A DNA stretch of 38,163 bases from a virus (IMGVR_UViG_3300038410_000117:1-38163); one strand, 5' to 3'. Shown: positions 5,734 through 38,163, counted from the stretch's first letter. A program made the numbers and translations. Notes: generated from the letters alone by a model not told the origin.

Positions 5734-7213
5734 AATCCAAGAAGCGCAAGAGCGCCGCCCCTGGCGCTACTACGCGCCCGTTCCAGTCCTTCGCGACGGA
5801 TTCCACAAATCGACGGCGAAGATTCGTCTTCTGACTGGACCGAACGGAGGCGGAAAGACATGGGCTGGAGCGTACGAACTGCTCTCCTATGCGACTGGAT
5901 ACAACCACATCCGGGATGAGCACTATCCGACGCCCAATGTCTGCTGGGCCGTCGCACTCGATCACCAGAACCTCGGCCCGATCATGCGCCGTACGGTGAT
6001 CTCGATGGCGCCGAAAGGCTCACACTTCGTCGCGAAGGAGATGAAGCTGATCCTTCCGAAGCCTTGGGGCAGCGAAATCTACTTCAAGGCGTGCGAGTCA
6101 GGCGTAGAGAAGTTCATGGCCGAGCGATGTCTGGCAATCTGGTTCGACGAGGAGTGGCCGGGAGAGGAGGGCCTTCGAATCTTCAAGGAGTCGCTCCGCC
6201 GCACGAAACCGGGCTGGCCCCTTCGCCTCTACATGACGCTGACTCCCGTCTTCGGGTACACCTGGACGTACGACTACCTTTGGCGCGAGGACTCGCCGCG
6301 TCGTTTCCGTGGCGTCGAACGCTTCAACTTCAACCTCTACGACTGCGCCCAAGCGAAGGGCGGGTTCCTCACGCAGGAGGAAATCGAAGATCGGGAACAG
6401 AACCTCGATCCGTACGAGCGACAGGCTCGGCTCATGGGCGAATACACGCTCGTCGGTGGAACGCCCGCCTTCGATCCGTCTCATCTGATGCGCGCACTCG
6501 ATCGTTGCGTCGCCGGAAAGCGCTATCGAATCAAGACAGCCGGACTCCGTGACGGCCTAGCGGCACCACTTCTGGAGGAAGACCCCGATGGACCGCTCCA
6601 CATCCTCGTCCGACCAGTCCGAGGCCGCCAGTACATCCTCGGAGGGGACCCGGCAATGGGAATCCGGCAGGACTCCAGCGTCGCCTCTGTCTGGGACCGA
6701 GAACTCCCCGTTGAAGTTGCCTATTTCTCTGGAAACGACGTGGACCCCGCCCAGTTCGCCCGAGATGTCGTGGCTCCCCTTGCGACTTTCTACAACAACG
6801 CGCTGGCGGCGATTGAGGCGAATTCTCAGGCCGGAGGCGCAGTCCTAGCCAATCTCCAGGGCGTGTACGGCCATCTCTATATGCGCCAAGATTTTGAGGC
6901 TAGGAAACGGGAGTTCAGCAGCCGCTACGGGTTCTGGACGAGCGACCACAATCGCGGCCTTCTCTTCTCGACCTTGAAGGCATCGCTTCCGATGGAGCAG
7001 TTCACCCCGAGCGAAGGCCTGATCCGCCAGATGATGAACATGATCGTGACGGAAAAGGACAGGATCGATCACATGCGCGGGCGGCATGATGATCATGTTC
7101 TCGCGGCAGCCATCGCCCTGACCGTGAATCGGCTCAATCCGACGCCGCGCTATGAGCCCTGGGGCTTCTACCGGGAGACCTACAAGGGCGAGAACGCCTG
7201 GATGGGAAATTGA
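5690..7213 (+). CDS. terL: Large terminase subunit
   Basis: Walker A LTGPNGGGKTW, Walker B-like LAIWFDEEW, C-terminal nuclease-type HMRGRHDDHVLAAAIAL. 507 aa. Confidence 0.9.
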   Translation: MDLNESNPQASQLRRIQEAQERRPWRYYAPVPVLRDGFHKSTAKIRLLTGPNGGGKTWAGAYELLSYATGYNHIRDEHYPTPNVCWAVALDHQNLGPIMRRTVISMAPKGSHFVAKEMKLILPKPWGSEIYFKACESGVEKFMAERCLAIWFDEEWPGEEGLRIFKESLRRTKPGWPLRLYMTLTPVFGYTWTYDYLWREDSPRRFRGVERFNFNLYDCAQAKGGFLTQEEIEDREQNLDPYERQARLMGEYTLVGGTPAFDPSHLMRALDRCVAGKRYRIKTAGLRDGLAAPLLEEDPDGPLHILVRPVRGRQYILGGDPAMGIRQDSSVASVWDRELPVEVAYFSGNDVDPAQFARDVVAPLATFYNNALAAIEANSQAGGAVLANLQGVYGHLYMRQDFEARKREFSSRYGFWTSDHNRGLLFSTLKASLPMEQFTPSEGLIRQMMNMIVTEKDRIDHMRGRHDDHVLAAAIALTVNRLNPTPRYEPWGFYRETYKGENAWMGN

Positions 7214-7309: not shown

Positions 7310-9211
7310 ATGGCCGATCCCCGGACGTATACTGACGGCACGACCGAGCTAGCGGCCTTCAAGTACGGGAAGGCCCTTCTCGATTCCGCACGGTCTCAAG
7401 CGCGCCACTTCACCGCCACAGCCTATGAGGACCTCAGATTCGCCCTGGGGGAGACCCAGTGGCCGACGCCTTCGAGCTATCGTGCCTGGTTCGCGGAACG
7501 CTGGAAGAACCGAAGCGTCCGGAACTACACCTTCGCGACGATCCACTACAAGGTCGCGATGTGTACGCAGGCAGAGCCCTCCATCCGCTGCGTCGCGCTC
7601 GATGAACTCTCCACAGCAGAAGAGCGCGCTTCGATCGAAGCAGCCGTCACGCACGAACTCGATCGGCTCCGATGGCGCGACTACATCCACGACGCCATGT
7701 TCGACGGCGCAGTCATGGGGAAGGGAATCATCCACGTCTACCCCATGCGTGACGATTTCACCGGGATGTACTACCTGAATCTCGAATCCGTCGATCCGAG
7801 CCGCTACTACCCCGATCCCGCGAAGTCGAAGCTGAAGGAAGCCCGGTATCTCGTCTACGAACCGGAACTCGACATGGCGATGATCCGGAAGATGTTCCCG
7901 GACACCTGGCAAACGGTGAAGCCGAAGGACAAGACGATTGGTCGGCTCGGTGACATTCAGTACTCCCGCACCGATGACGAGATCATCTACGGACCGGCCA
8001 CTGGGGAGATCACGGTCACCAAGGACGGGTATCTTGCCGAGCGGAAGGCGAACGTGGCCTTCATCTGGATCAAGGACCCGACCGTCGTTGATGACTTGAA
8101 GACGGTCCTCGACCAGCCTCCGACTCCAGGGTTCAAGTGCGCCGACTGCGGAAATGACTTCACGGCGGACGGAGCCGCATTCAGTCCTCCGACGGAACGA
8201 ACCATGCCGCGCTGTCCGGAATGCATGAGCGCGAATCTCACTCCGATGATGACCCCGCCCCTCTTCACGGTTCTGAAGGACCGGGCGCGGCTCTACCCCT
8301 TCGGGCGACTGATCGCGCTCACAGATAGCGGACTCCTCTATGACGGGCCGAGCGAATACGAACTGTCTGGCGTCTTTCCGTTCGTCGAGTACAACCACTA
8401 CCGGATTCCCCGGCGATACTGGGGCTACGGCGACGTAGCGCTCTGCAAGAGCCCGCAGCAAGCGTTGAACAAGCACATCTCCCAAGCGATCGACTACATG
8501 CGCCTAGCCGGGAACTCCCCGATGGAAGTCCCCGCCGAGGTCCAGGCGTATCGCCATCTGGGAACGATCCCTGGGGACACGATCCCGGTTCCGGCCGCAT
8601 TCATGGGAATGGCGCGCTACCTCTCGCCTGGCGGGTACAACGCGATGTTCCATCAAGTTCTAGACCAGGCTCTTCTCATGGATTTCCAGCGGACGACCGG
8701 CGTCACGGACGTGGCAAGCGGGATCGCGCCGAACGCCCCGACTTCCGGGATTGAAGTCCAGTCGCGCCAGGCGGCAGCGAACACGCGACTCGGAGATCAC
8801 ATGCGCGAACTCAACAGCACGAGTTCCGATCTCGCGAGCATCACCTACGAAATGATGCATCAGTTCTACACGGAGCCCAGGGCGTTCTCGGCTCCGACTC
8901 CCAATGGCGAACTCTATCCGATCGCGATGGAAGTCGCGCAGCTCCCCGTCAACGTTTCCGTCGTCGTCACGGCTTCGCTCGACAAGCAGCAGAAAGACAA
9001 CCTCTTCGGGCAGAACCTCATGGCCGCCGTCCAATCCGGACAGATTCCGTTCATGCCGGACCTCATGCTCCCGATGATGGGCGGAGATCGAGAGACGTCG
9101 CGCGAGATCGCCGATCGCGCACAGCAGGCCCAACAGCAACTTCAGGCGGCGAGCGCGCAGCAAGCGCTTCTGCCCGGCCCTCAACCCGCAGCGGCCCCGG
9201 AGGCAGGATGA
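7310..9211 (+). CDS. Portal protein (633 aa) with an inserted CxxC...CxxC zinc ribbon
   Basis: Position directly after terL, size, Q/A-rich acidic C-terminus. Zn ribbon is FKCADCGNDF...PRCPECMS. Confidence 0.7.
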   Translation: MADPRTYTDGTTELAAFKYGKALLDSARSQARHFTATAYEDLRFALGETQWPTPSSYRAWFAERWKNRSVRNYTFATIHYKVAMCTQAEPSIRCVALDELSTAEERASIEAAVTHELDRLRWRDYIHDAMFDGAVMGKGIIHVYPMRDDFTGMYYLNLESVDPSRYYPDPAKSKLKEARYLVYEPELDMAMIRKMFPDTWQTVKPKDKTIGRLGDIQYSRTDDEIIYGPATGEITVTKDGYLAERKANVAFIWIKDPTVVDDLKTVLDQPPTPGFKCADCGNDFTADGAAFSPPTERTMPRCPECMSANLTPMMTPPLFTVLKDRARLYPFGRLIALTDSGLLYDGPSEYELSGVFPFVEYNHYRIPRRYWGYGDVALCKSPQQALNKHISQAIDYMRLAGNSPMEVPAEVQAYRHLGTIPGDTIPVPAAFMGMARYLSPGGYNAMFHQVLDQALLMDFQRTTGVTDVASGIAPNAPTSGIEVQSRQAAANTRLGDHMRELNSTSSDLASITYEMMHQFYTEPRAFSAPTPNGELYPIAMEVAQLPVNVSVVVTASLDKQQKDNLFGQNLMAAVQSGQIPFMPDLMLPMMGGDRETSREIADRAQQAQQQLQAASAQQALLPGPQPAAAPEAG

Positions 9212-29716: not shown

Positions 29717-30015
29717 TATCGTGTCGGCCAGACCGCTTCGGTCGCCGCCTCCGGATCGGTCTGCTCATCCCACCAGCACGTGAACTCATCCATTGCGTGG
29801 TAGTCTCGTTCCCCCATGCCACAGTCTTCCGGCTCAGTCGGAGTGAAATTGCTGGCGAATGGCAAGAGTCCGAGCGGGCACTTCCCATAGAACCTGAGAT
29901 CATCGAGCGCTCCACCGCCATCGGGAACTGGTAGCCGTCTAGGCCGGGGAACCCAGAAGCGAATGAAGTCAATCACTGGTTTCGCTGCTCTCGGCACCTC
30001 GCGTGTCAGACTCAT
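29716..30015 (-). CDS. Hypothetical protein (99 aa)
   Basis: ATGA overlap with the upstream stop favours the ATG at 30015 over the track start at 30030. Confidence 0.5.
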   Translation of the reverse strand: MSLTREVPRAAKPVIDFIRFWVPRPRRLPVPDGGGALDDLRFYGKCPLGLLPFASNFTPTEPEDCGMGERDYHAMDEFTCWWDEQTDPEAATEAVWPTR

Positions 30016-30998
30016 TTGCCGTTCTCCCATTTCCAGGTGTGTTTGACCTTGGTTTTCTGGCTTCCTTGAATTCGTGCGATCTCGGCTTTCGCGTGGGCAT
30101 CGCCCTCGAACGCCAGAGCATCCAGTTCACAGTTGATGAAGTGTCTGCCCTGCTTCGGTGACCACTTCCGGACGAGCAGAGCACCGCATGCTTCGCACGA
30201 TCCATCGACGTACTCTGTCGCTCGGTTCTGAGGCGTCGCGGGAGGCCCTTCGTAGCCCGCGTCAGGCAATTCTCCGTTCGCCTCGATCATGTCTTCGATG
30301 TCCTGAGTGAAGACCTCGGAGAGTCCCGCAAGTCGAAGTGTGGCGTCGATGTGAGCGGACTTGGCCGCCATCTTGAGGCCCTTGTTGATGTCGCCACGAT
30401 CTGTTTCGAGAACGCGCCGGGCTCCGATCCCTTCGGCAACGACATGGCCGCCCGTCCTCAATTCACAGCGGAGCACGACGAATTCGATCGCCTCACCTCG
30501 AAGCGCTTTGTCTTCGTAGAGACTGAGTGTCGGGAAGTGAGTCGTCACACCGAGCATGCCGCAAATCTTCTCGGCTCCTGGTTTCCAAAGGCTCGGTTTG
30601 GAGAGTCCACGACTCGTCGGAATGGAACCGAAGTCGATTCCCTCATGAAGAGCGTCATGGACCCATGAGATGAGCGCTTTCCGATTCGCACCACGACGAT
30701 CGAGCCCTTCTTTGAAGAGATGAGCAGGGAGATCGAGTGGCGAGAACGTTGGATCGCTCGGCTGAATCGATGGCGGCAGCGTCTTCTCTGGAAGCGTCTC
30801 CGTTACCTCGGGAATGGGAGATGCCGAGACGATGCGAACCTCCTCACTTTCGACGGGTCGCTGGTTGGAGTTTGCGCGACAGTCCTCGCAAAGGTTCGGT
30901 TCGTCATGCGATAGCGGGCGCCCCGCGCGTCGGGTCGTTTCCTCCCGCGTCTGCAAATCCTTGCCGCATTCGCTACAGAGCCACCATGCTTTCTTCAT
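30012..30998 (-). CDS. Zn-ribbon-flanked DNA-binding protein, possible single-strand annealing protein (328 aa)
   Basis: GGAGGT lies 6 nt upstream of the ATG at 30998; the longer track ORF runs into tRNA-Cys. N-terminal CSECG...CEDC, C-terminal CEACG...INCE (TopA-like finger). Core KPSLWKPGAEKICGMLGV...MAAKSAHIDATLRLAGL resembles phage SSAPs. Confidence 0.45.
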   Translation of the reverse strand: MKKAWWLCSECGKDLQTREETTRRAGRPLSHDEPNLCEDCRANSNQRPVESEEVRIVSASPIPEVTETLPEKTLPPSIQPSDPTFSPLDLPAHLFKEGLDRRGANRKALISWVHDALHEGIDFGSIPTSRGLSKPSLWKPGAEKICGMLGVTTHFPTLSLYEDKALRGEAIEFVVLRCELRTGGHVVAEGIGARRVLETDRGDINKGLKMAAKSAHIDATLRLAGLSEVFTQDIEDMIEANGELPDAGYEGPPATPQNRATEYVDGSCEACGALLVRKWSPKQGRHFINCELDALAFEGDAHAKAEIARIQGSQKTKVKHTWKWENGK

Positions 30999-31017
30999 GG
31001 CCATACCTCCATTTCTG

Positions 31018-31088
31018 AGACGCCGCCCGGATTCGAACCGGGGTAATCGGCTTTGCAGACCGACGCCTAGCCCCTCGGCCACAGCGTC
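31018..31088 (-). tRNA. tRNA-Cys (anticodon GCA), discriminator U73
   Basis: GACGCTG-...-TCGGT-CTGCAAA-GCCGA-TTACC-CCGGG/CCCGG T arm with TTCGAAT loop-CGGCGTC-T. Confidence 0.8.
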
Positions 31089-31100
31089 ATCGTATCGATT

Positions 31101-31183
31101 TGGGCAACCCTGGATTCGAACCAGGAACCGCTAATGGGACCGGTTTTACAGACCGGCTGCCGTACCAGTTCGGCGTGTTGCCC
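31101..31183 (-). tRNA. tRNA-Tyr (anticodon GUA), long variable arm
   Basis: GGGCAAC...CCGGT-CTGTAAA-ACCGG-long variable region-CCTGG-TTCGAAT-CCAGG-GTTGCCC-A. Confidence 0.8.
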
Positions 31184-31191
31184 GTTTCTCT

Positions 31192-31275
31192 TGGTGCGCC
31201 TAGAGGGATTTGAACCCCCACGCCCGAAGACACTAGTTCCTAAGACTAGCGCGTCTGCCGTTCCGCCATAGGCGC
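31192..31275 (-). tRNA. tRNA-Leu (anticodon UAG), long variable arm, CCA encoded
   Basis: GCGCCTA-TG-GCGGAACGGCAGACGC-G-CTAGT-CTTAGGA-ACTAG-...-GGGGG-TTCAAAT-CCCTC-TAGGCGC-A-CCA. Confidence 0.8.
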
Positions 31276-31277
31276 AT

Positions 31278-31362
31278 TGCCCGGAACAGGATTCGAACCT
31301 GCATGAAGCATCGGCTCCAACGGGGTTTGAGTCCGTCGCGTCTGCCGTTCCGCCATCCGGGC
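31278..31362 (-). tRNA. tRNA-Leu (anticodon CAA), long variable arm
   Basis: GCCCGGA-TG-GCGGAACGGCAGACGC-G-ACGGA-CTCAAAC-CCCGT-...-GCAGG-TTCGAAT-CCTGT-TCCGGGC-A. A31-C39 mismatch as in tRNA-Arg. Confidence 0.75.
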
Positions 31363-32034: not shown

Positions 32035-32247
32035 CTAGCTTTTCTCCTCCCCGGTAGGTTCATGCAGCGCATCGGATAACGCCGTCGGAGGCGCCCCGAT
32101 CCGGGGCGCCTCCTCCCGCAGTTCCAGCGCGGCAGCGAGAATCCGATTCATAGCGGCAAGGTACTGCTCGATGACGTGCACGGCGTGAACTGGCGCCAAG
32201 CGTGGCGCCTTGAGCGGGTCGCCCCGGAGAATCCGATCCGTCGTCAT
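32035..32247 (-). CDS. Hypothetical protein (70 aa)
   Basis: ATGA overlap with the upstream gene. Confidence 0.5.
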   Translation of the reverse strand: MTTDRILRGDPLKAPRLAPVHAVHVIEQYLAAMNRILAAALELREEAPRIGAPPTALSDALHEPTGEEKS

Positions 32248-32438
32248 TTCTGAGCCTCCAGTCTAGCCAATTCGCGAGCTAGCGCGAATTGGAGTCGCTT
32301 GGCCGTCTCCCGATCCATGAAGTACGTCATTCGCGAAGCGTATTCGATAAAGGCAATGACAATCCAATTCGCTTCCGGATCGGCGGTTACCTTGAGGCTT
32401 GAGAACACACTATTCTGACTTCCCTTGATTGTCACCAT
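32244..32438 (-). CDS. Hypothetical protein (64 aa)
   Basis: GGAG lies 6 nt upstream of the internal ATG (MVTIKGSQNSVF...). Confidence 0.5.
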   Translation of the reverse strand: MVTIKGSQNSVFSSLKVTADPEANWIVIAFIEYASRMTYFMDRETAKRLQFALARELARLEAQK

Positions 32439-32440
32439 GT

Positions 32441-32605
32441 TTAGCTCCGTTTCGCTTCGCGCCTGAGCGCTTGGATGTACCGAATCACGAGCGCGCATTT
32501 GCGCTCTAGCTTCGGGCCGAGACGCTTGTAGCGTGTCGCGACTAGTTCCCTGTCGAGCGAGCGGATCGCGCGGAGCAATCCGCTCGCGGTTTCAGTTCTG
32601 ATCAT
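32441..32605 (-). CDS. Hypothetical basic protein (54 aa)
   Basis: ATGA overlap with the amidotransferase-like gene's stop (MIRTETASGLL...). Confidence 0.45.
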   Translation of the reverse strand: MIRTETASGLLRAIRSLDRELVATRYKRLGPKLERKCALVIRYIQALRREAKRS

Positions 32606-33600
32606 TCGCTCCCCTCTCCGGCGCGGTGGCGCCATGATGGCCAGTTATTCTCCTTTACGTGCTGGCGCCATGTCTCAATGTCGCCTAGGTGTCGCTTCCA
32701 TGCTTCGCGCTCCTCTGGCGTCAACGTATCATCGGCTAGGACTCCGGTATCATCCGGCGCCGTCCCGTTGATCGGTAGAATCGACTTGATATGACCGTCC
32801 TTATCGAATTCTGTGCGCATAGACGGGCCGCGTTCGTACTTACTGCCCAAGTATTCCGACAGACCGTAGCCGTAGCCTCCAGTAAAACTGCGGTACGTAT
32901 AGCCGTCGATAGGTTTGCTACGCTGCTTTAGCTTGTGCGGCATACACTCGAATAGAATGTTTTCAGGAACGGATGACACCTTGACCCAATGACGTAGCCA
33001 AACGTAGCTTATCGCATTGCGCAGAATAGTCTCGGTCGACGCGAATATAGTTATTTTGCCTCCTCCCTCAAGCGGAATCCGAGTGTATACGATGGGATTC
33101 CCAGAACGCATGAGATACAGGCGTCCGCTATGAACCGCAGCAATCGCGCTCGGGCCATCCGTATCCTGCAAGAACTTCGGCAGCATGTTTGGGCCGTACG
33201 ATTCGACGAATGACGCGACTAGCTCCGAATCGACGCCGCTAGGCTTCTTAATGCTCCACGTCTTCCGAAGGGACTTCATGTCGAAAAAGAATCCGTTATG
33301 AACGCTCACGGTGTCGCCGCGTTTGAACGGTTGAGCCTGTGCATCGTCCCTGCCTCCGCACGTAGGCTGGCGCGTATGTCCTAGCGCGATGCTAGGATTA
33401 TGCTCGAACGCGTTAAAGAATTCCGATGTCTCGGTAAGGCTCATCGGACGAATCGCCCGTTTGACCACTATGCCATTGACGTAAACTCCTGCACTTTGAG
33501 ATCCGCGCTCCTCCCCATAGAACAGTAACCCTTCCATCAGGCGCCTAGCCGCTTGTCGCTCGATTGGTACAGACGAAATGAAGCCTGAGATGCTACACAT
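32602..33600 (-). CDS. Class II (Ntn, N-terminal Cys) glutamine amidotransferase-like protein with a C-terminal extension of about 110 aa
   Basis: MCSISGF start, GHTRQPTCGG....AQPF, VHNGFFFDMKSL are the hallmark GATase-2 motifs. Confidence 0.8.
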   Translation of the reverse strand: MCSISGFISSVPIERQAARRLMEGLLFYGEERGSQSAGVYVNGIVVKRAIRPMSLTETSEFFNAFEHNPSIALGHTRQPTCGGRDDAQAQPFKRGDTVSVHNGFFFDMKSLRKTWSIKKPSGVDSELVASFVESYGPNMLPKFLQDTDGPSAIAAVHSGRLYLMRSGNPIVYTRIPLEGGGKITIFASTETILRNAISYVWLRHWVKVSSVPENILFECMPHKLKQRSKPIDGYTYRSFTGGYGYGLSEYLGSKYERGPSMRTEFDKDGHIKSILPINGTAPDDTGVLADDTLTPEEREAWKRHLGDIETWRQHVKENNWPSWRHRAGEGSE

Positions 33601-34918
33601 ATAGCGTTTTCCTTTCGCTTTTGGGCCGCTTGTGCATATTCAAGTAGCCCGTGCCGTGTCGCTTCGCGCGTTTCACGAAGTACTTTCGCAGAGACATTGG
33701 CGCCTTGACTTGCTGGAATAGGAATATCAAGCGCTCTCTGTCTGTCATTTGATACACCACCGCTCGCCGTTCTGACGTGCATTGGATCGCCTGAAACGTC
33801 TCGAAAAACGAAAGCATGAGCCTTGCCCATGCTGCCACCTTGACGGTTGAAACTGTACCCTGATGCAACCGAATTTCGTACGTTTTGAACTTGTGGAACG
33901 CTGCGACGTTCAACGATCGGTACCGGTCGTTTTGCCAATCGGCTAGATTGCTGATCCCGTCCACGCTACGGGCATAGTTGTTGTCGCGTCTGCGTGGCGT
34001 TACTACTCCGAAAAAGACTCGCTCAAGCGCTTGCCACCACCGTGCTATGTTCTCGCGCTGCCTGGCACTCATGTCGGAAACGTCAACGTGCATATGGAAT
34101 CCACATGAATCATTTGCATACGCATTAGCTCGCCTCAAACTGTAGCAAACCTTTCGGATCATGGCCAAGGCGGCATCTCCACGAGCCGGGAAGCTAGAAA
34201 ACTCGTAAGGCGTTCCCCTGTTTCCGCGAATACTCATATCATCGTGAATTCTGCCGTATCGCGCCACATCGGGGCACCTGTCTGCCAAAAACTCAAGTTC
34301 TATTCCGAACGGCCGCTTGATTGGAATGATATCGTATGTTGTGGAATCAACCGACGGCGGAGTAGACCGAGCTGCTTCCGCATAGCATGATTCACAATAC
34401 CTCCGGTTGGAAAGTTCCAGAGTACTGTCAGGATCGAAGTAACTGCCGCAGCGATAACATTCGGCGAATTGCTCATGGAAGCATGATTCGCAGTAGATTC
34501 TACCACATTGCGCGGCTTCGTGGAACGTCTCATGCGGATTAATTCGCATGTCTGGCGCGTGGACATCGTGACCGCATGCAACGCATGGCAATACTTGCGA
34601 ATCGTAGCAATCGGTGCATATCCTGACGTTAAGCAAGGATGGGCTAGGGCCATAGTAGGGGCGCGACTGCATTCGATGCCAAAGCGCTGAGCCCAGAATT
34701 AGCCGCCAAGTCGTGTCACGTAGTCCACCGCAGCACGGGCAAGCGGCTTGATGTCTCGGTCCACAAGAAGCGCATAGGGTATACACACCACCGCCATCAT
34801 CGCTTGAGATACGATAGCGTGCTAAACGTTCCTGCGGAAAAGAATGGTCGCAGGCATCACATCGAACATGACTTGGAGGCACCGTATAGGTGTACGTTGT
34901 GAAATTGGGCACGATCAA
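33593..34918 (-). CDS. GS-like amidoligase (Amidoligase_2 type) fused to an N-terminal multi-zinc-ribbon region of about 190 aa
   Basis: FGIELEF, DDMSIRG...YEFSS, CGFHMHVD, RYRSLN, YEIRLHQGT match the amidoligase motif order. The N-terminus has at least 8 CxxC pairs. Confidence 0.75.
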   Translation of the reverse strand: MIVPNFTTYTYTVPPSHVRCDACDHSFPQERLARYRISSDDGGGVYTLCASCGPRHQAACPCCGGLRDTTWRLILGSALWHRMQSRPYYGPSPSLLNVRICTDCYDSQVLPCVACGHDVHAPDMRINPHETFHEAAQCGRIYCESCFHEQFAECYRCGSYFDPDSTLELSNRRYCESCYAEAARSTPPSVDSTTYDIIPIKRPFGIELEFLADRCPDVARYGRIHDDMSIRGNRGTPYEFSSFPARGDAALAMIRKVCYSLRRANAYANDSCGFHMHVDVSDMSARQRENIARWWQALERVFFGVVTPRRRDNNYARSVDGISNLADWQNDRYRSLNVAAFHKFKTYEIRLHQGTVSTVKVAAWARLMLSFFETFQAIQCTSERRAVVYQMTDRERLIFLFQQVKAPMSLRKYFVKRAKRHGTGYLNMHKRPKSERKTLYV

Positions 34919-35166
34919 GCCTCCTCGTAGAAGCTAGACCACAGAACATCGGAGGGAGAATCGGTAAGAGACTGCTTCCACCGCTCCGAACCGGCCGCGC
35001 AGTAGGAATGACGCACGATGCCGTCTGGATGTTCTGCCTTGATACCTGGAGAGAGTAGCCAAACAGGTACATTCATGGCGCGACGTGCCTCTAGCTGCTC
35101 GGCAAGCGACACGGGTTCAACGGGACGTTTGCAGACGTAGCACGTACCGCACGATGCGGTTGCCAT
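34915..35166 (-). CDS. Small zinc-binding protein (83 aa), first gene of the amidoligase cassette
   Basis: AGGAGG lies 8 nt upstream of the ATG. CGTCYVCKRP...HSYC. ATGA overlap with the amidoligase gene. Confidence 0.6.
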   Translation of the reverse strand: MATASCGTCYVCKRPVEPVSLAEQLEARRAMNVPVWLLSPGIKAEHPDGIVRHSYCAAGSERWKQSLTDSPSDVLWSSFYEEA

Positions 35167-35287
35167 AGGACATGCCTCCTATCGCGGGTCCACAGCATAG
35201 CCTTGCGGATTGTCGCAAGCGCTCAAGGGATAAACGATGCAAGTTCCGCGCCGCATGAAGGCATAGAGTAGTTCCACGAGCTATGTC

Positions 35288-35316
35288 ATTGTAACATAAC
35301 GCGTTCCTAGAATCAA
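35288..35316 (-). promoter_or_regulatory. Strong sigma70-like promoter TTGATT-17-TACAAT with an extended-10 TG
   Basis: -35 is rc of 35311-35316 and -10 is rc of 35288-35293, preceded by TGT. Gives a leader of about 115 nt to the ATG at 35166. Confidence 0.55.
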
Positions 35317-35351
35317 TGGGTCATTTGACCCAATTTCATGCACGCATGAAA
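35317..35351. promoter_or_regulatory. Two adjacent perfect palindromes abutting the -35: TGGGTCA-tt-TGACCCA (35317-35332) and TTTCATGC-ac-GCATGAAA (35334-35351)
   Basis: Read directly. This is operator-like geometry. Confidence 0.5.
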
Positions 35352-35779
35352 AGGCATTGTGCCACACCACGTTGCGCGAATTGCACCACGTCCCTAGGAG
35401 ACAGTCTAACCCGTTGCCGCACAGAGCGTTAGCTAAGTCCTTATTTCTCGCCGCCGCACTACTCTAGTAGGGGGGAGATGGTCGGACGACTAGCGGTAAG
35501 TTCCTAGCCGCATCCGTAGGCCTCTCGCGCGAGGAGATGACTCCGTCCACCAGCCCCCTAATGACCTGCCAGTCACACAACAGGTTAGCTCCTCCAAGGT
35601 ATGGAAATGGAACGCAGAGATCGGATACCCCCCCTAGGGGCTATCCCCCTGGGATGCAAAGAGATGTGTAATCCCCCCTGCGAGAATTTTGGTGGTGTTA
35701 GGATTCTCGGACTCCTGTGGGACCCGTGGAGGGGCGATCTGTGGTGGGGTGTGGTTGGGAGTCATCTTGGTGGTGATCT

Positions 35780-35995
35780 CTAGTTCTGGGGCTTCTCTGG
35801 TGGCTTCCTGGGCCTTCTGAGTTTGGGCTTGACTACGGGGATGATGGCGTTGGCTAGGCGAGCGGCATCTTGGAGGCGGCTATCTTCTAGCCAGCGACTA
35901 TACGGTTTGTCAGTGACGGCCTTGGTTGACAATGTGAAGTTGTAGGTGAAGGCTGCGGCTAGGGCGGAGAGCCAGGATTGGGGGCGGGTTTTCAT
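35780..35995 (-). CDS. Hypothetical protein (71 aa)
   Basis: Track ORF. The ATG lies 12 nt after the TAG (36010-36008) of the frameshift-corrected upstream gene. Confidence 0.5.
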   Translation of the reverse strand: MKTRPQSWLSALAAAFTYNFTLSTKAVTDKPYSRWLEDSRLQDAARLANAIIPVVKPKLRRPRKPPEKPQN

Positions 35996-36981: not shown

Positions 36982-37179
36982 CTACGTCGCCCCGTTGTAG
37001 ATTCGCACGGCGTACTCGCGTAGGCCGCCATTGTCCGTGTAGCCGCGAGTCGGTGCTGGAATGGCGGGACCGAACGTGACCTTCGCTTCGCGCGGCACGG
37101 TCACACGCAGTTCCCTGTCGCCCGCCAGCTTGATGATCAAGCATTTCGTTTCTGTCCTGGCCGCCTTCTTCGCTACCAT
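36982..37179 (-). CDS. Hypothetical protein (65 aa)
   Basis: GGAGG lies 5 nt upstream of the internal ATG (MVAKKAARTETKCLIIKL...). Confidence 0.5.
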   Translation of the reverse strand: MVAKKAARTETKCLIIKLAGDRELRVTVPREAKVTFGPAIPAPTRGYTDNGGLREYAVRIYNGAT

Positions 37180-37204
37180 CGAATCCTCCAGGGAGGGAGA
37201 CGCC

Positions 37205-37777
37205 ATGAGATTGCTAGCCTGTTTGTTCGCGCTTCTCCTACCGAAGTGCGCGCTCGCCGCCACACTCCTCTTCACCATTCCCTCTACCGGTCAGGATCGC
37301 TCCATGATCTGGGACCCGGACGCGGGAGATTCCGTGCTCCACGTCGACTGCACCGGGACGGCGGCGATTCACGACTCAATCCTCGTTCGCCTCTACGGCC
37401 AGCCGGTTACCGGCGGCGGATTCCGCGTGATCGACTCTCACTGGGCTGTCGACCGGTTCGGCGCGGCGGACAGCTTCGCAACGCCCTGGCCCGGCAACTT
37501 CTACGTCACGACGGCGAATCACGTCGGAGAATCCTGCGCCTCGGCCGTCGTCACGATTCTTCCGAGCGACCTCACGGCCGTCGAGCCGACCGCCGACTCC
37601 GATCCGATCGTTTCCTGTCGTCTCTTCAATGTTCGTGGCGCCCTCGTCGCGTGGCTCCCTCGCACAGCTTGGAGCGAGCGAATACTTCGCGTCGCTCTTC
37701 CGAGCGGCATCTACTGGATCAAAGCCATCACCGCATCACGTCACGCTCTCGTTCGCAGAATTCTTGTGCTTCGCTAG
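37205..37777 (+). CDS. Secreted protein (190 aa) with a T9SS/FlgD-Ig-like C-terminal domain, in opposite orientation to all neighbours
   Basis: Signal peptide MRLLACLFALLLPKCALA-AT. GGGAGGGAGA upstream. C-terminus is RLFNVRGALVAWLPRTAWSERILRVALPSGIYWIKAITASRHALVRRILVLR. Confidence 0.6.
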   Translation: MRLLACLFALLLPKCALAATLLFTIPSTGQDRSMIWDPDAGDSVLHVDCTGTAAIHDSILVRLYGQPVTGGGFRVIDSHWAVDRFGAADSFATPWPGNFYVTTANHVGESCASAVVTILPSDLTAVEPTADSDPIVSCRLFNVRGALVAWLPRTAWSERILRVALPSGIYWIKAITASRHALVRRILVLR

Positions 37778-38029: not shown

Positions 38030-38163
38030 CGGGATGACCGGACCAGATCAGCGTCTCGTCAATCGACTTGATCTCCCGGTACCGAGGCCCTCCAAGGAAG
38101 TATCGGAGGCCATCCCAACCGCACTTGATGAGCAGACGCCCGTCCGGCCACTTCATGTACGGT
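38016..38163 (-). CDS. 3' portion of the junction-spanning gene (same gene as 1-252), shown again because of the terminal repeat
   Basis: Stop TAA at 38018-38016. 38037-38163 duplicates 1-127. Confidence 0.5.
   Translation of the reverse strand, partial: PYMKWPDGRLLIKCGWDGLRYFLGGPRYREIKSIDETLIWSGHPDGNY
38037..38163. repeat. Second copy of the 127-bp terminal repeat
   Basis: Identical to 1-127. Confidence 0.95.

Follow-up and report, generated by a model that had tools for sequence, protein, structure and literature searches.

A predicted zinc-finger amidoligase paired with a class II glutamine amidotransferase-fold protein in a compact phage gene module

The viral sequence IMGVR_UViG_3300038410_000117:1-38163, whose 38,163 nucleotides (nt) were analysed in full and are referred to here as the window, carries a pair of overlapping minus-strand genes. 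The first encodes an Amidoligase_2 protein with an N-terminal array of CxxC motifs (the ligase), and the second an N-terminal nucleophile (Ntn) protein related to class II glutamine amidotransferases (GATases). A small open reading frame (ORF) lies on either side of the pair, one of 83 amino acids (aa) upstream and one of 54 aa downstream, and these four genes are called the cassette below (Table 1). A family scan of the ORFs identifies the window as a tailed-phage genome with terminase and portal genes; an SU10-type podovirus adaptor, an SLT lysin and six tRNA genes are also encoded. Positions 1-127 are identical to 38037-38163, which indicates a complete phage genome of about 38.0 kb, either circularly closed or terminally redundant. 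The module sits in the early/replication arm of this complete podophage genome. An earlier reading of the same sequence (the original prediction) had described a three-gene cassette made up of a small zinc protein, the ligase and the Ntn protein. Its coordinates for the three minus-strand ORFs are exact, all the motifs that it quoted are found, and its interpretation is partly supported, with three corrections: the conserved unit has two genes, the Ntn protein has no C-terminal domain, and the Ntn active site is one for glutamine or gamma-glutamyl compounds. It is very probable that the locus encodes a two-enzyme module formed by an Amidoligase_2 and a class II GATase-fold protein.

The coupling of these two genes extends well beyond the window. 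Of the 21 loci fetched through the GATase, three protein look-ups supplied L001-L004, and scanning viral contigs supplied L005-L021. In 14/14 informative distinct viral loci the Amidoligase_2 gene directly precedes the GATase gene in the same orientation, with a spacing of -58 to +15 nt; not counted among the 14 are loci truncated at a contig end and one whose GATase is 22% identical. The paired loci span 33-64% GC, and the arrangement holds both with a ligase of 28% identity and with a GATase of 31% identity, so that the co-occurrence expected in the original prediction was found in distant pairs as well. The conserved unit is two genes, ligase plus GATase, and they form an obligate gene pair. 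Other recurrent neighbours in the related loci, AAA_25 and PD-(D/E)XK proteins, are generic to replication and recombination and are therefore uninformative on function. The association itself has been known since 2009, when Iyer et al. reportedly predicted it by comparative genomics; the window holds a minimal, zinc-finger-bearing and apparently recently transferred form of it.

The ligase matches Pfam family PF12224 (Amidoligase_2) at 63.4 bits, against a cutoff of 22, and the 'amidoligase enzyme' families of PHROGs; all 13 of the aligned homologues match PF12224 too. Its AlphaFold model has a mean predicted local distance difference test (pLDDT) score of 77.6, rising above 90 for aa 200-420, and the Foldseek neighbours of the model are glutamine synthetases (GS) I, II and III, YbdK/GCS2 (1tt4) and the gamma-glutamylmethylamide synthetase GmaS (9qur), with E values of 6.5e-6 to 1e-3. 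A sequence search of the ligase against the PDB gave nothing significant, its LIM match having E=0.13. The motifs FGIELEF (204-210), CGFHMHVD (272-279), RYRSLN (332-337) and YEIRLHQGT (347-355) fall in invariant or near-invariant columns. Invariant residues include G205xE207xE209, D227xS229, E239, N269, C272GxH275xH277xD279, E299, R310, R332, N337 and E348xR350xH352, and the ordered metal/ATP motif set (E207/E209, E239, H275/H277, R310/R332, E348/R350) is complete. Weak, motif-level hhalign alignments to E. coli YbdK and GlnA (E = 0.012 and 0.24) put the ExR of the ligase on the ExR strand of YbdK, and its E239 and HxH on E220 and H269/H271 of GS. Sequence and model together predict an ATP-dependent, GS-fold carboxylate-amine ligase that would form amide bonds.

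Within the N-terminal ~196 aa of the ligase there are 18 Cys and eight CxxC motifs (aa 20, 49, 60, 101, 112, 143, 154 and 175), in line with the CxxC-packed N-terminus of about 190 aa described before. Eight CxxC motifs imply four Cys4 zinc sites, which we predict to be LIM-like or zinc-ribbon-like. The likeness to LIM domains, part of the earlier description, applies to the family, since PF00412 is matched by 4/13 homologues (best E 1.2e-5), but not to the window ligase, which has no LIM match at E<=0.05. The array is kept in register in 11/13 homologues; in the compact ones the CxxC motifs form a ~32-aa repeat with linkers of 7-8 residues, and not the 2-residue inter-finger spacing of LIM domains. 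The pLDDT is 75-87 for aa 100-190 and lower before aa 100. Full-length ligase matches in a viral structure library come from uncultured phages, and one of them is automatically named 'LIM domain containing protein'. The net charge of the array, -6 in the window protein and often strongly acidic elsewhere, ranges from -32 to +20 across homologues, which argues against conserved nucleic-acid binding and for a variable protein-recognition module. The zinc-finger array is thus a probable target-recognition module.

A further helical module follows the catalytic core of the ligase, with R394, L397, L400 and F401 near-invariant. It is specific to the zinc-finger subfamily, being absent from >94% of unpaired amidoligases, and is a candidate docking surface for the partner protein. 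Protein-level searches (including tblastn) of deposited phages returned amidoligases that are ~25% identical over the catalytic domain only, with the zinc fingers uncovered, and no deposited phage with the combined zinc-finger and C-terminal helical architecture; a nucleotide search of the window against deposited phages gave no match.

The Amidoligase_2 family is large, with 6054 representatives at E<=1e-3, and the GATase accompanies a particular part of it. We compared 76 distant relatives, 73 from cellular genomes or metagenome-assembled genomes and three from loci L022-L024. A GATase is present in the locus for 9/11 relatives with at least four N-terminal CxxC motifs versus 8/65 with fewer than four, and the two CxxC-array relatives without a GATase sit on short contigs. 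Stand-alone amidoligases of ~310 aa are essentially never found with a GATase. Catalytic residues are identical in the GATase-paired and unpaired groups, the N-terminal module has been swapped between ligase lineages, and cellular amidoligases are <=33% identical to the window ligase. In L034, L035, L053 and L057 the GATase-paired ligases have another N-terminus, a CxxC ribbon followed by CxC...CxH that is SWIM-like by eye; Pfam gave no match for these alternative modules of paired amidoligases. Locus L022, a 52-kb contig that also carries a serine recombinase, has an amidoligase with neither zinc fingers nor a GATase near two GGACT/AIG2 genes of the gamma-glutamyl-cyclotransferase-like kind (6323-6808 and 8547-9002).

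The Ntn protein matches GATase_6 (PF13522) at 37.5 bits, against a cutoff of 27, and glutamine-amidotransferase families in PHROGs. Its motifs MCSISGF (1-7), GHTRQPTCGG (74-83), QPF (90-92) and VHNGFF (100-105) again occupy invariant or near-invariant columns. M1-C2 is invariant in 25/25 aligned sequences, as are R32-G33, H75/R77/P79/T80, H101-N102-G103 and V123-D124-S125. The family profile maps the invariant positions to Cys1, R26-G27, R73/T76, N98-G99 and D123 of E. coli GlmS, which are the nucleophile, the oxyanion hole and the holders of the glutamine alpha-carboxylate and alpha-amino groups. The structural model has pLDDT >90 over aa 1-230, and in Foldseek it resembles the GlmS glutaminase domain 1xff (template modelling (TM) score, 0.72-0.74) and EgtC (0.71), as well as PurF and GlmS/GFAT. 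Judged by motifs and model, the protein is a stand-alone class II GATase fold with an intact glutamine/gamma-glutamyl pocket. For both enzymes, then, Pfam, the models with Foldseek and the motif columns agree with the families assigned in the original prediction. Its additional label of thiol peptidase for the Ntn protein proved too loose: the residues that hold the alpha-amino and alpha-carboxylate groups are all invariant, so the substrate should be glutamine or a gamma-glutamyl amide and not an ordinary peptide bond.

The remainder of the Ntn protein had been taken for a C-terminal domain of about 110 aa, and is instead a non-conserved tail. There is no alignable conservation past ~aa 230, homologues vary in length, and the pLDDT is mostly 42-74 (<50 at 238-257, 283-289 and 321-332; ~70 elsewhere), so that the model is poor here except for a hairpin and a terminal helix. 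Pfam, the alignment and the model reveal no fused synthase or acceptor domain that would receive ammonia, only this variable tail. A GATase motif scan of 185,579 cellular genomes found no relatives of the Ntn protein.

Table 1. Position, strand and basis of the features at the amidoligase-GATase locus of the window
Feature	Position	Strand	Basis
Zinc-finger Amidoligase_2 gene	33593-34918	minus	441 aa from TTG at 34918; Pfam, PHROG, GS-fold model
CxxC array, aa 20-178, 8 motifs	34385-34861	minus	Conserved in register; LIM in some homologues
GS-fold catalytic core, aa ~198-380	33779-34327	minus	Invariant columns, pLDDT >90, Foldseek
C-terminal helical module, aa ~382-425, TDRExLIxLFQQxKxPLxLxKY	33644-33775	minus	Near-invariant residues; helices with pLDDT >90
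Ntn gene	32602-33600	minus	332 aa, starts Met-Cys
Class II GATase-fold Ntn domain, aa 1-230	32911-33600	minus	Catalytic Cys2; pocket R32-G33, H75-x-R77-x-x-T80, N102-G103, D124
Variable C-terminal tail, aa 231-332 plus stop	32602-32910	minus	Gly/Tyr-rich linker, beta-hairpin, amphipathic helix
83-aa ORF	34915-35166	minus	ORF; good Shine-Dalgarno (SD) sequence, close coupling upstream of ligase
Small basic helical ORF, 54 aa from ATGA start	32441-32605	minus	Directly downstream of Ntn gene
Promoter-like site TTGATT-17-TACAAT with upstream TG	35288-35316	minus	9/12 consensus matches plus TG
Low-GC island, ~3.6 kb	32200-35800	-	300-nt windows 0.50-0.58 versus 0.60-0.68 either side

For the chemistry and target of the module we tentatively favour a gamma-glutamyl-type ligation to a protein amine, with the Ntn enzyme processing or reversing the product. 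With ATP, the ligase would activate a carboxylate, most likely the gamma-carboxylate of glutamate, as an acyl-phosphate and couple it to an amine of a macromolecule; this target, probably a protein of the host or the phage, would be held or selected by the zinc-finger array. The Ntn enzyme would form a gamma-glutamyl thioester on Cys2 and cleave gamma-glutamyl amides, thereby processing the donor, or else trimming or undoing the mark. EgtA/EgtC and ligase-plus-peptidase tagging systems work by the same logic. It is suggested by the models, in that the Ntn protein fits EgtC equally well as it does glutaminase domains and the ligase fits YbdK/GCS2 and GmaS. It is also suggested by the sister amidoligases, whose GGACT or GGCT partners cleave gamma-glutamyl-amines and cannot donate ammonia, and by ligase catalytic residues that stay the same whether or not a GATase is present. 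Among class II GATase-fold proteins that stand alone, the characterised ones (EgtC and yeast Dug3) are gamma-glutamyl hydrolases, which points the same way. The swapping of the N-terminal module, its range of charge and the LIM matches among homologues argue for a macromolecular target other than nucleic acid.

Several considerations weigh against this gamma-glutamyl ligation. Conservation of the glutamine pocket cannot tell glutamine from gamma-glutamyl-X, and in a two-gene module it seems futile for a ligase to make a bond that a hydrolase then breaks, without another enzyme acting in between. No conserved tag-like small protein was found near the pair. Glutamate as the substrate is read from fold neighbours and weak motif alignments, while zinc binding at the Cys4 sites and the resemblance to LIM domains are themselves predicted. 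The association of the CxxC array with a GATase neighbour (Fisher's exact p = 7.5e-6) is uncorrected for phylogeny. Finally, a literature search returned annotation-level mentions only of the amidoligase-GATase pair and no experimental report.

A close rival, possible though doubtful in our view, is a two-subunit glutamine-dependent amidotransferase, in which the Ntn protein would hydrolyse glutamine and pass ammonia to the ligase, and the ligase would turn a carboxylate of the target (protein Glu/Asp, a C-terminus or another) into a carboxamide. It would be analogous to MurT/GatD and to the split between NH3- and glutamine-dependent synthetases. The lipid II amidotransferase MurT/GatD is likewise reported to consist of a glutaminase and an ATP-dependent ligase, separately encoded and co-transcribed, that amidate a carboxylate (PMC3267633), but the GATase GatD belongs to class I (triad), and MurT has the Mur-ligase fold. 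In the window, every glutaminase and glutamine-binding position of GlmS is invariant, the nearest sequence and fold matches of the Ntn protein are true amidotransferase glutaminase domains, and 1:1 coupling by overlapping genes over deep divergence is typical of heteromeric enzymes. GS-fold enzymes are the archetypal ammonia users, and a two-gene module that works in this way avoids the objection of a futile cycle. Unpaired relatives with identical catalytic residues could then be NH3-dependent forms, and the subfamily-specific C-terminal module could be the docking site. To our knowledge, however, class II GATases do not serve GS-fold synthetases or partners encoded by a separate gene. GGACT and GGCT, the partners of sister subfamilies, are unable to supply ammonia, and amidoligase and GGCT occur together in Clostridium prophages (PMC11318856); larger phage cassettes contain a GATase as well as a GGCT (PMC5498523, PMC3890496).

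The gamma-glutamyl ligation that we favour has partial parallels in known systems. The EgtA/EgtC pair of ergothioneine synthesis likewise combines a GS-fold GCS2 gamma-glutamyl ligase with a class II GATase-fold protein that stands alone and uses its Cys to hydrolyse a gamma-glutamyl amide, and both folds are among the Foldseek neighbours (1tt4 for the ligase, 4zfj-4zfl for the Ntn protein). It differs in being a small-molecule pathway with EgtB, EgtD and EgtE intervening, in having no zinc fingers and no phage context, and in an identity of ~16%. In PafA/Dop pupylation, a GS-fold ligase forms gamma-glutamyl-lysine isopeptides on proteins, and a partner amidase deamidates or reverses. Unlike the Ntn protein, Dop has the GS fold, and pupylation needs a conserved Pup tag gene, which does not accompany the pair; a Pup-like conserved small tag with a C-terminal Glu/Gln was not found beside the ligase. 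PuuA/PuuD and Ipu-type pathways rely on a GS-like ligase to gamma-glutamylate an amine and on a GATase-like hydrolase to take the glutamyl group off again, and the ligase fold neighbour 9qur makes for a further likeness. There the hydrolase is of class I, and the pathways are catabolic ones for small molecules with oxidative steps between.

The Amidoligase_2-GATase pair is among the most widely annotated phage enzyme modules with a function yet unassigned, and is found in LUZ24, phiEco32, RIO-1, OM43, crAss-like and Arthrobacter phage groups. It has been annotated in the LUZ24-like phages UFV-P2, tf and PaP3 (PMC3890496, PMC3517423), in the RIO-1/PSA-HP1 group and phiEco32 (PMC5498523, PMC4819975), in OM43 phages (PMC10580990) and in a Planctomycetes phage (PMC10945688). 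In agreement with the original prediction, which had called the substrate and role uncharacterised, published accounts treat the function as hypothetical (PMC10580990, PMC5498523, PMC4819975, PMC11318856, PMC8989533). The cassette of LUZ24, phiEco32, RIO-1 and PSA-HP1 (Iyer et al. 2009; Hardies et al. 2013) resembles the window in placing an Amidoligase_2 and then a class II GATase in the early/replication arm of a podovirus, and there too the function is a prediction (PMC3890496, PMC5498523, PMC4819975). It differs in having 5-7 genes, with an ATP-grasp protein, a second COOH-NH2 ligase (PF14395), GGCT and a ~486-aa GATase, whereas the window has the pair only. The window ligase is also unlike the amidoligases of isolated phages in its zinc-finger array and C-terminal helical module, and the literature search found no LIM or zinc-finger fusion to an amidoligase.

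For the larger cassette, modification of the cell wall against superinfection has been hypothesised, an idea that secondary papers credit to Iyer et al. and Hardies et al. (PMC10580990, PMC5498523, PMC11318856). Applied to the window, it would mean that the stem peptide of the peptidoglycan precursor is amidated or gamma-glutamyl-remodelled in the cytoplasm. We regard this as unlikely. The stem peptide does offer the carboxylates of D-iGlu and mDAP, both proteins are without signal peptides and could act on cytoplasmic precursors, and with its SU10-type adaptor this podovirus resembles the phiEco32 group. However, the hypothesis itself is purely predicted, and it uses the ATP-grasp protein, the second ligase and GGCT for three unusual linkages; none of these was found among the window ORFs scanned with Pfam and PHROGs or as a recurrent neighbour in related loci. 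An array of four zinc fingers with lineage-variable charge would also be unexpected in a small-molecule enzyme.

A step in hypermodification of phage DNA or nucleotides, such as a side chain added to or amidated on a modified base, is very improbable. GATase II-QueC fusions do exist in 7-deazaguanine pathways, which counts for such a role. Amidoligase and amidotransferase Pfam domains like those of the pair also co-occur with thymidine-hypermodification genes in some viral contigs (PMC8989533). Against this, no dUMP hydroxymethylase, 5-HMUDK, aGPT-Pplase, TET/JBP, DpdA or QueC/D/E/queuosine gene was found among the scanned window ORFs, several of which are unassigned, or among the recurrent neighbours, and the zinc-finger region is often strongly acidic. 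Least probable of all, and scarcely to be entertained, is that these are auxiliary metabolic genes boosting host nitrogen or amino-acid metabolism, as annotated for Phage-ZRK32 and OM43 phages (PMC10945688, PMC10580990), since the GATase scan and the identities of cellular amidoligases leave the pair with no close cellular homologues and since a zinc-finger targeting module, an early position among small ORFs and variable tails are unlike housekeeping metabolism.

Returning to modification of a protein, the pair may be a system that writes, and can edit, an undescribed mark on a particular host or defence protein picked out by the swappable zinc-finger module, the mark being either amine gamma-glutamylation or ATP/glutamine-dependent amidation of an acidic residue, and may thereby act as an effector of host takeover or counter-defence; we offer this wider role as speculative and rather doubtful. 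PADLOC gave no defence-family match for any of the four cassette proteins, and NCBIfam no informative match. The window holds the simplest version of the module, two genes with their own promoter-like site in a complete 38-kb genome. Its zinc fingers are an explicit candidate targeting domain that could serve as bait for the substrate, and it is the most tractable entry point. The two chemistries should be distinguishable by mass, at +129.04 Da for gamma-glutamylation and -0.98 Da for amidation.

Base composition supports the horizontal acquisition of the pair that the original prediction had suggested. The GC content of the pair is 0.531 versus 0.611 for the rest of the genome, and GC at third codon positions (GC3) is 0.56-0.61 versus 0.70-0.78 in other (structural) phage genes. 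The low GC is thus real, with 300-nt windows between 0.50 and 0.57, although the 45% at the bottom of the range given earlier (about 45-57%) lies below any 300-nt window. In 13 other pair-carrying phages the pair differs from its own flanks by only -5.1 to +2.5 GC points, and the closest relatives of the pair are in phages of 39-49% GC. As the pair deviates here and little in the 13 others, the composition points to a phage of lower GC as the source from which the pair was transferred fairly recently.

The junctions between the genes are tight. The ligase and Ntn genes share an 8-nt overlap, ATGTGTAG, and an ATGA overlap joins the Ntn gene to the next ORF downstream, outside the originally proposed trio. 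The earlier statement that all three genes are coupled by ATGA or 8-nt overlaps therefore holds for ligase and Ntn protein, whereas the junction of the 83-aa ORF with the ligase is TTGA if the TTG start is used, or else a 2-nt gap. The more likely ligase start is GTG at 34912, which gives 439 aa: it lies 2 nt past the stop of the 83-aa ORF and 7 nt past GAGGAGG, and this SD spacing favours it. A second, independent gene caller also gave 439 aa for the ligase and 332 aa for the Ntn protein. In the public JGI calls the Ntn protein starts from M22, so that the catalytic Cys2 is lost, and the ligase is a 166-aa C-terminal fragment only. Since these calls truncate both enzymes, automated surveys may undercount or misjudge the module.

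The small ORFs beside the pair are not part of the conserved unit. The 83-aa ORF, which the original prediction had counted as its third gene, has only a self-match among 5.8 billion proteins and no homologue adjoining any related pair. It is an ORFan, either co-transcribed cargo or a lineage-specific gene, and not a conserved module member. Its description as a small zinc protein was not confirmed either, as it has one CxxCxxC, a distant HxxC and no family match above threshold in Pfam, PHROGs, PADLOC or NCBIfam; its C-terminus is ...YEEA. The 54-aa downstream ORF, with C-terminus ...AKRS, is conserved only in the three closest phages (the window, L001 and L006). Its homologues follow the pair in L001 (6764-6955) and L006 (6761-7006) and share the motifs LLRxIRSLD...KCxLV(I/L)(R/K)YI; in both loci the homologue is read in a different frame from the Ntn tail, which it overlaps. 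That a conserved tag or substrate might be supplied by the Ntn tail or by a small ORF nearby was considered and ruled out, since no C-terminus is conserved. In L003 (4406-4621), L012 (2446-2715), L009 (4252-4548) and L017 (4324-4575) the amidoligase is closely preceded by small, non-homologous ORFs with Cys residues; one of them is a clear CPNC...CHSC ribbon with a 4-nt overlap with the ligase start. These could be chance or convergent accessory genes.

Upstream of the cassette there is an ORF-free gap of 610 nt (35167-35779), which is C-rich on the minus strand, with a plus-strand GC skew of up to +0.35. The promoter-like site in this gap (Table 1) is probably the cassette promoter by consensus match, though the count of promoter-like sites in the region is not above shuffle expectation. 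A hairpin (35332-35317) directly precedes the site. Rfam found tRNAs only in the window, and nothing in the gap.

At a distance of 1.2 kb downstream of the cassette, and like it on the minus strand, there is a tRNA cluster (31017-31362) that comprises Cys-GCA, Tyr-GTA, Leu-TAG and Leu-CAA. Relative to 15 reference genes, the cassette is enriched in the codons that this cluster reads (Cys 5.3x, CTA 3.3x, TTG 2.7x, Tyr 1.5x), while AGA and ATG, whose tRNAs are encoded at other places in the genome, show no enrichment. Linkage of tRNAs to the pair is not conserved in the related loci.

Two other ORFs of the window may be mentioned. A 356-aa minus-strand ORF (30012-31082) overlaps tRNA-Cys at its 5' end, so that its true start is probably internal (MKKAWW...); it matches phrog_10048 (function unknown) and has CxxC pairs at both ends, one of them a weak topoisomerase-type zinc-ribbon match. 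A 238-aa ORF (37061-37777) is on the plus strand in an early region where the other genes are on the minus strand, and it overlaps ORFs of the latter; it matches no family and has a high GC3 of 0.75 and a hydrophobic, signal-peptide-like stretch near aa 50-70.

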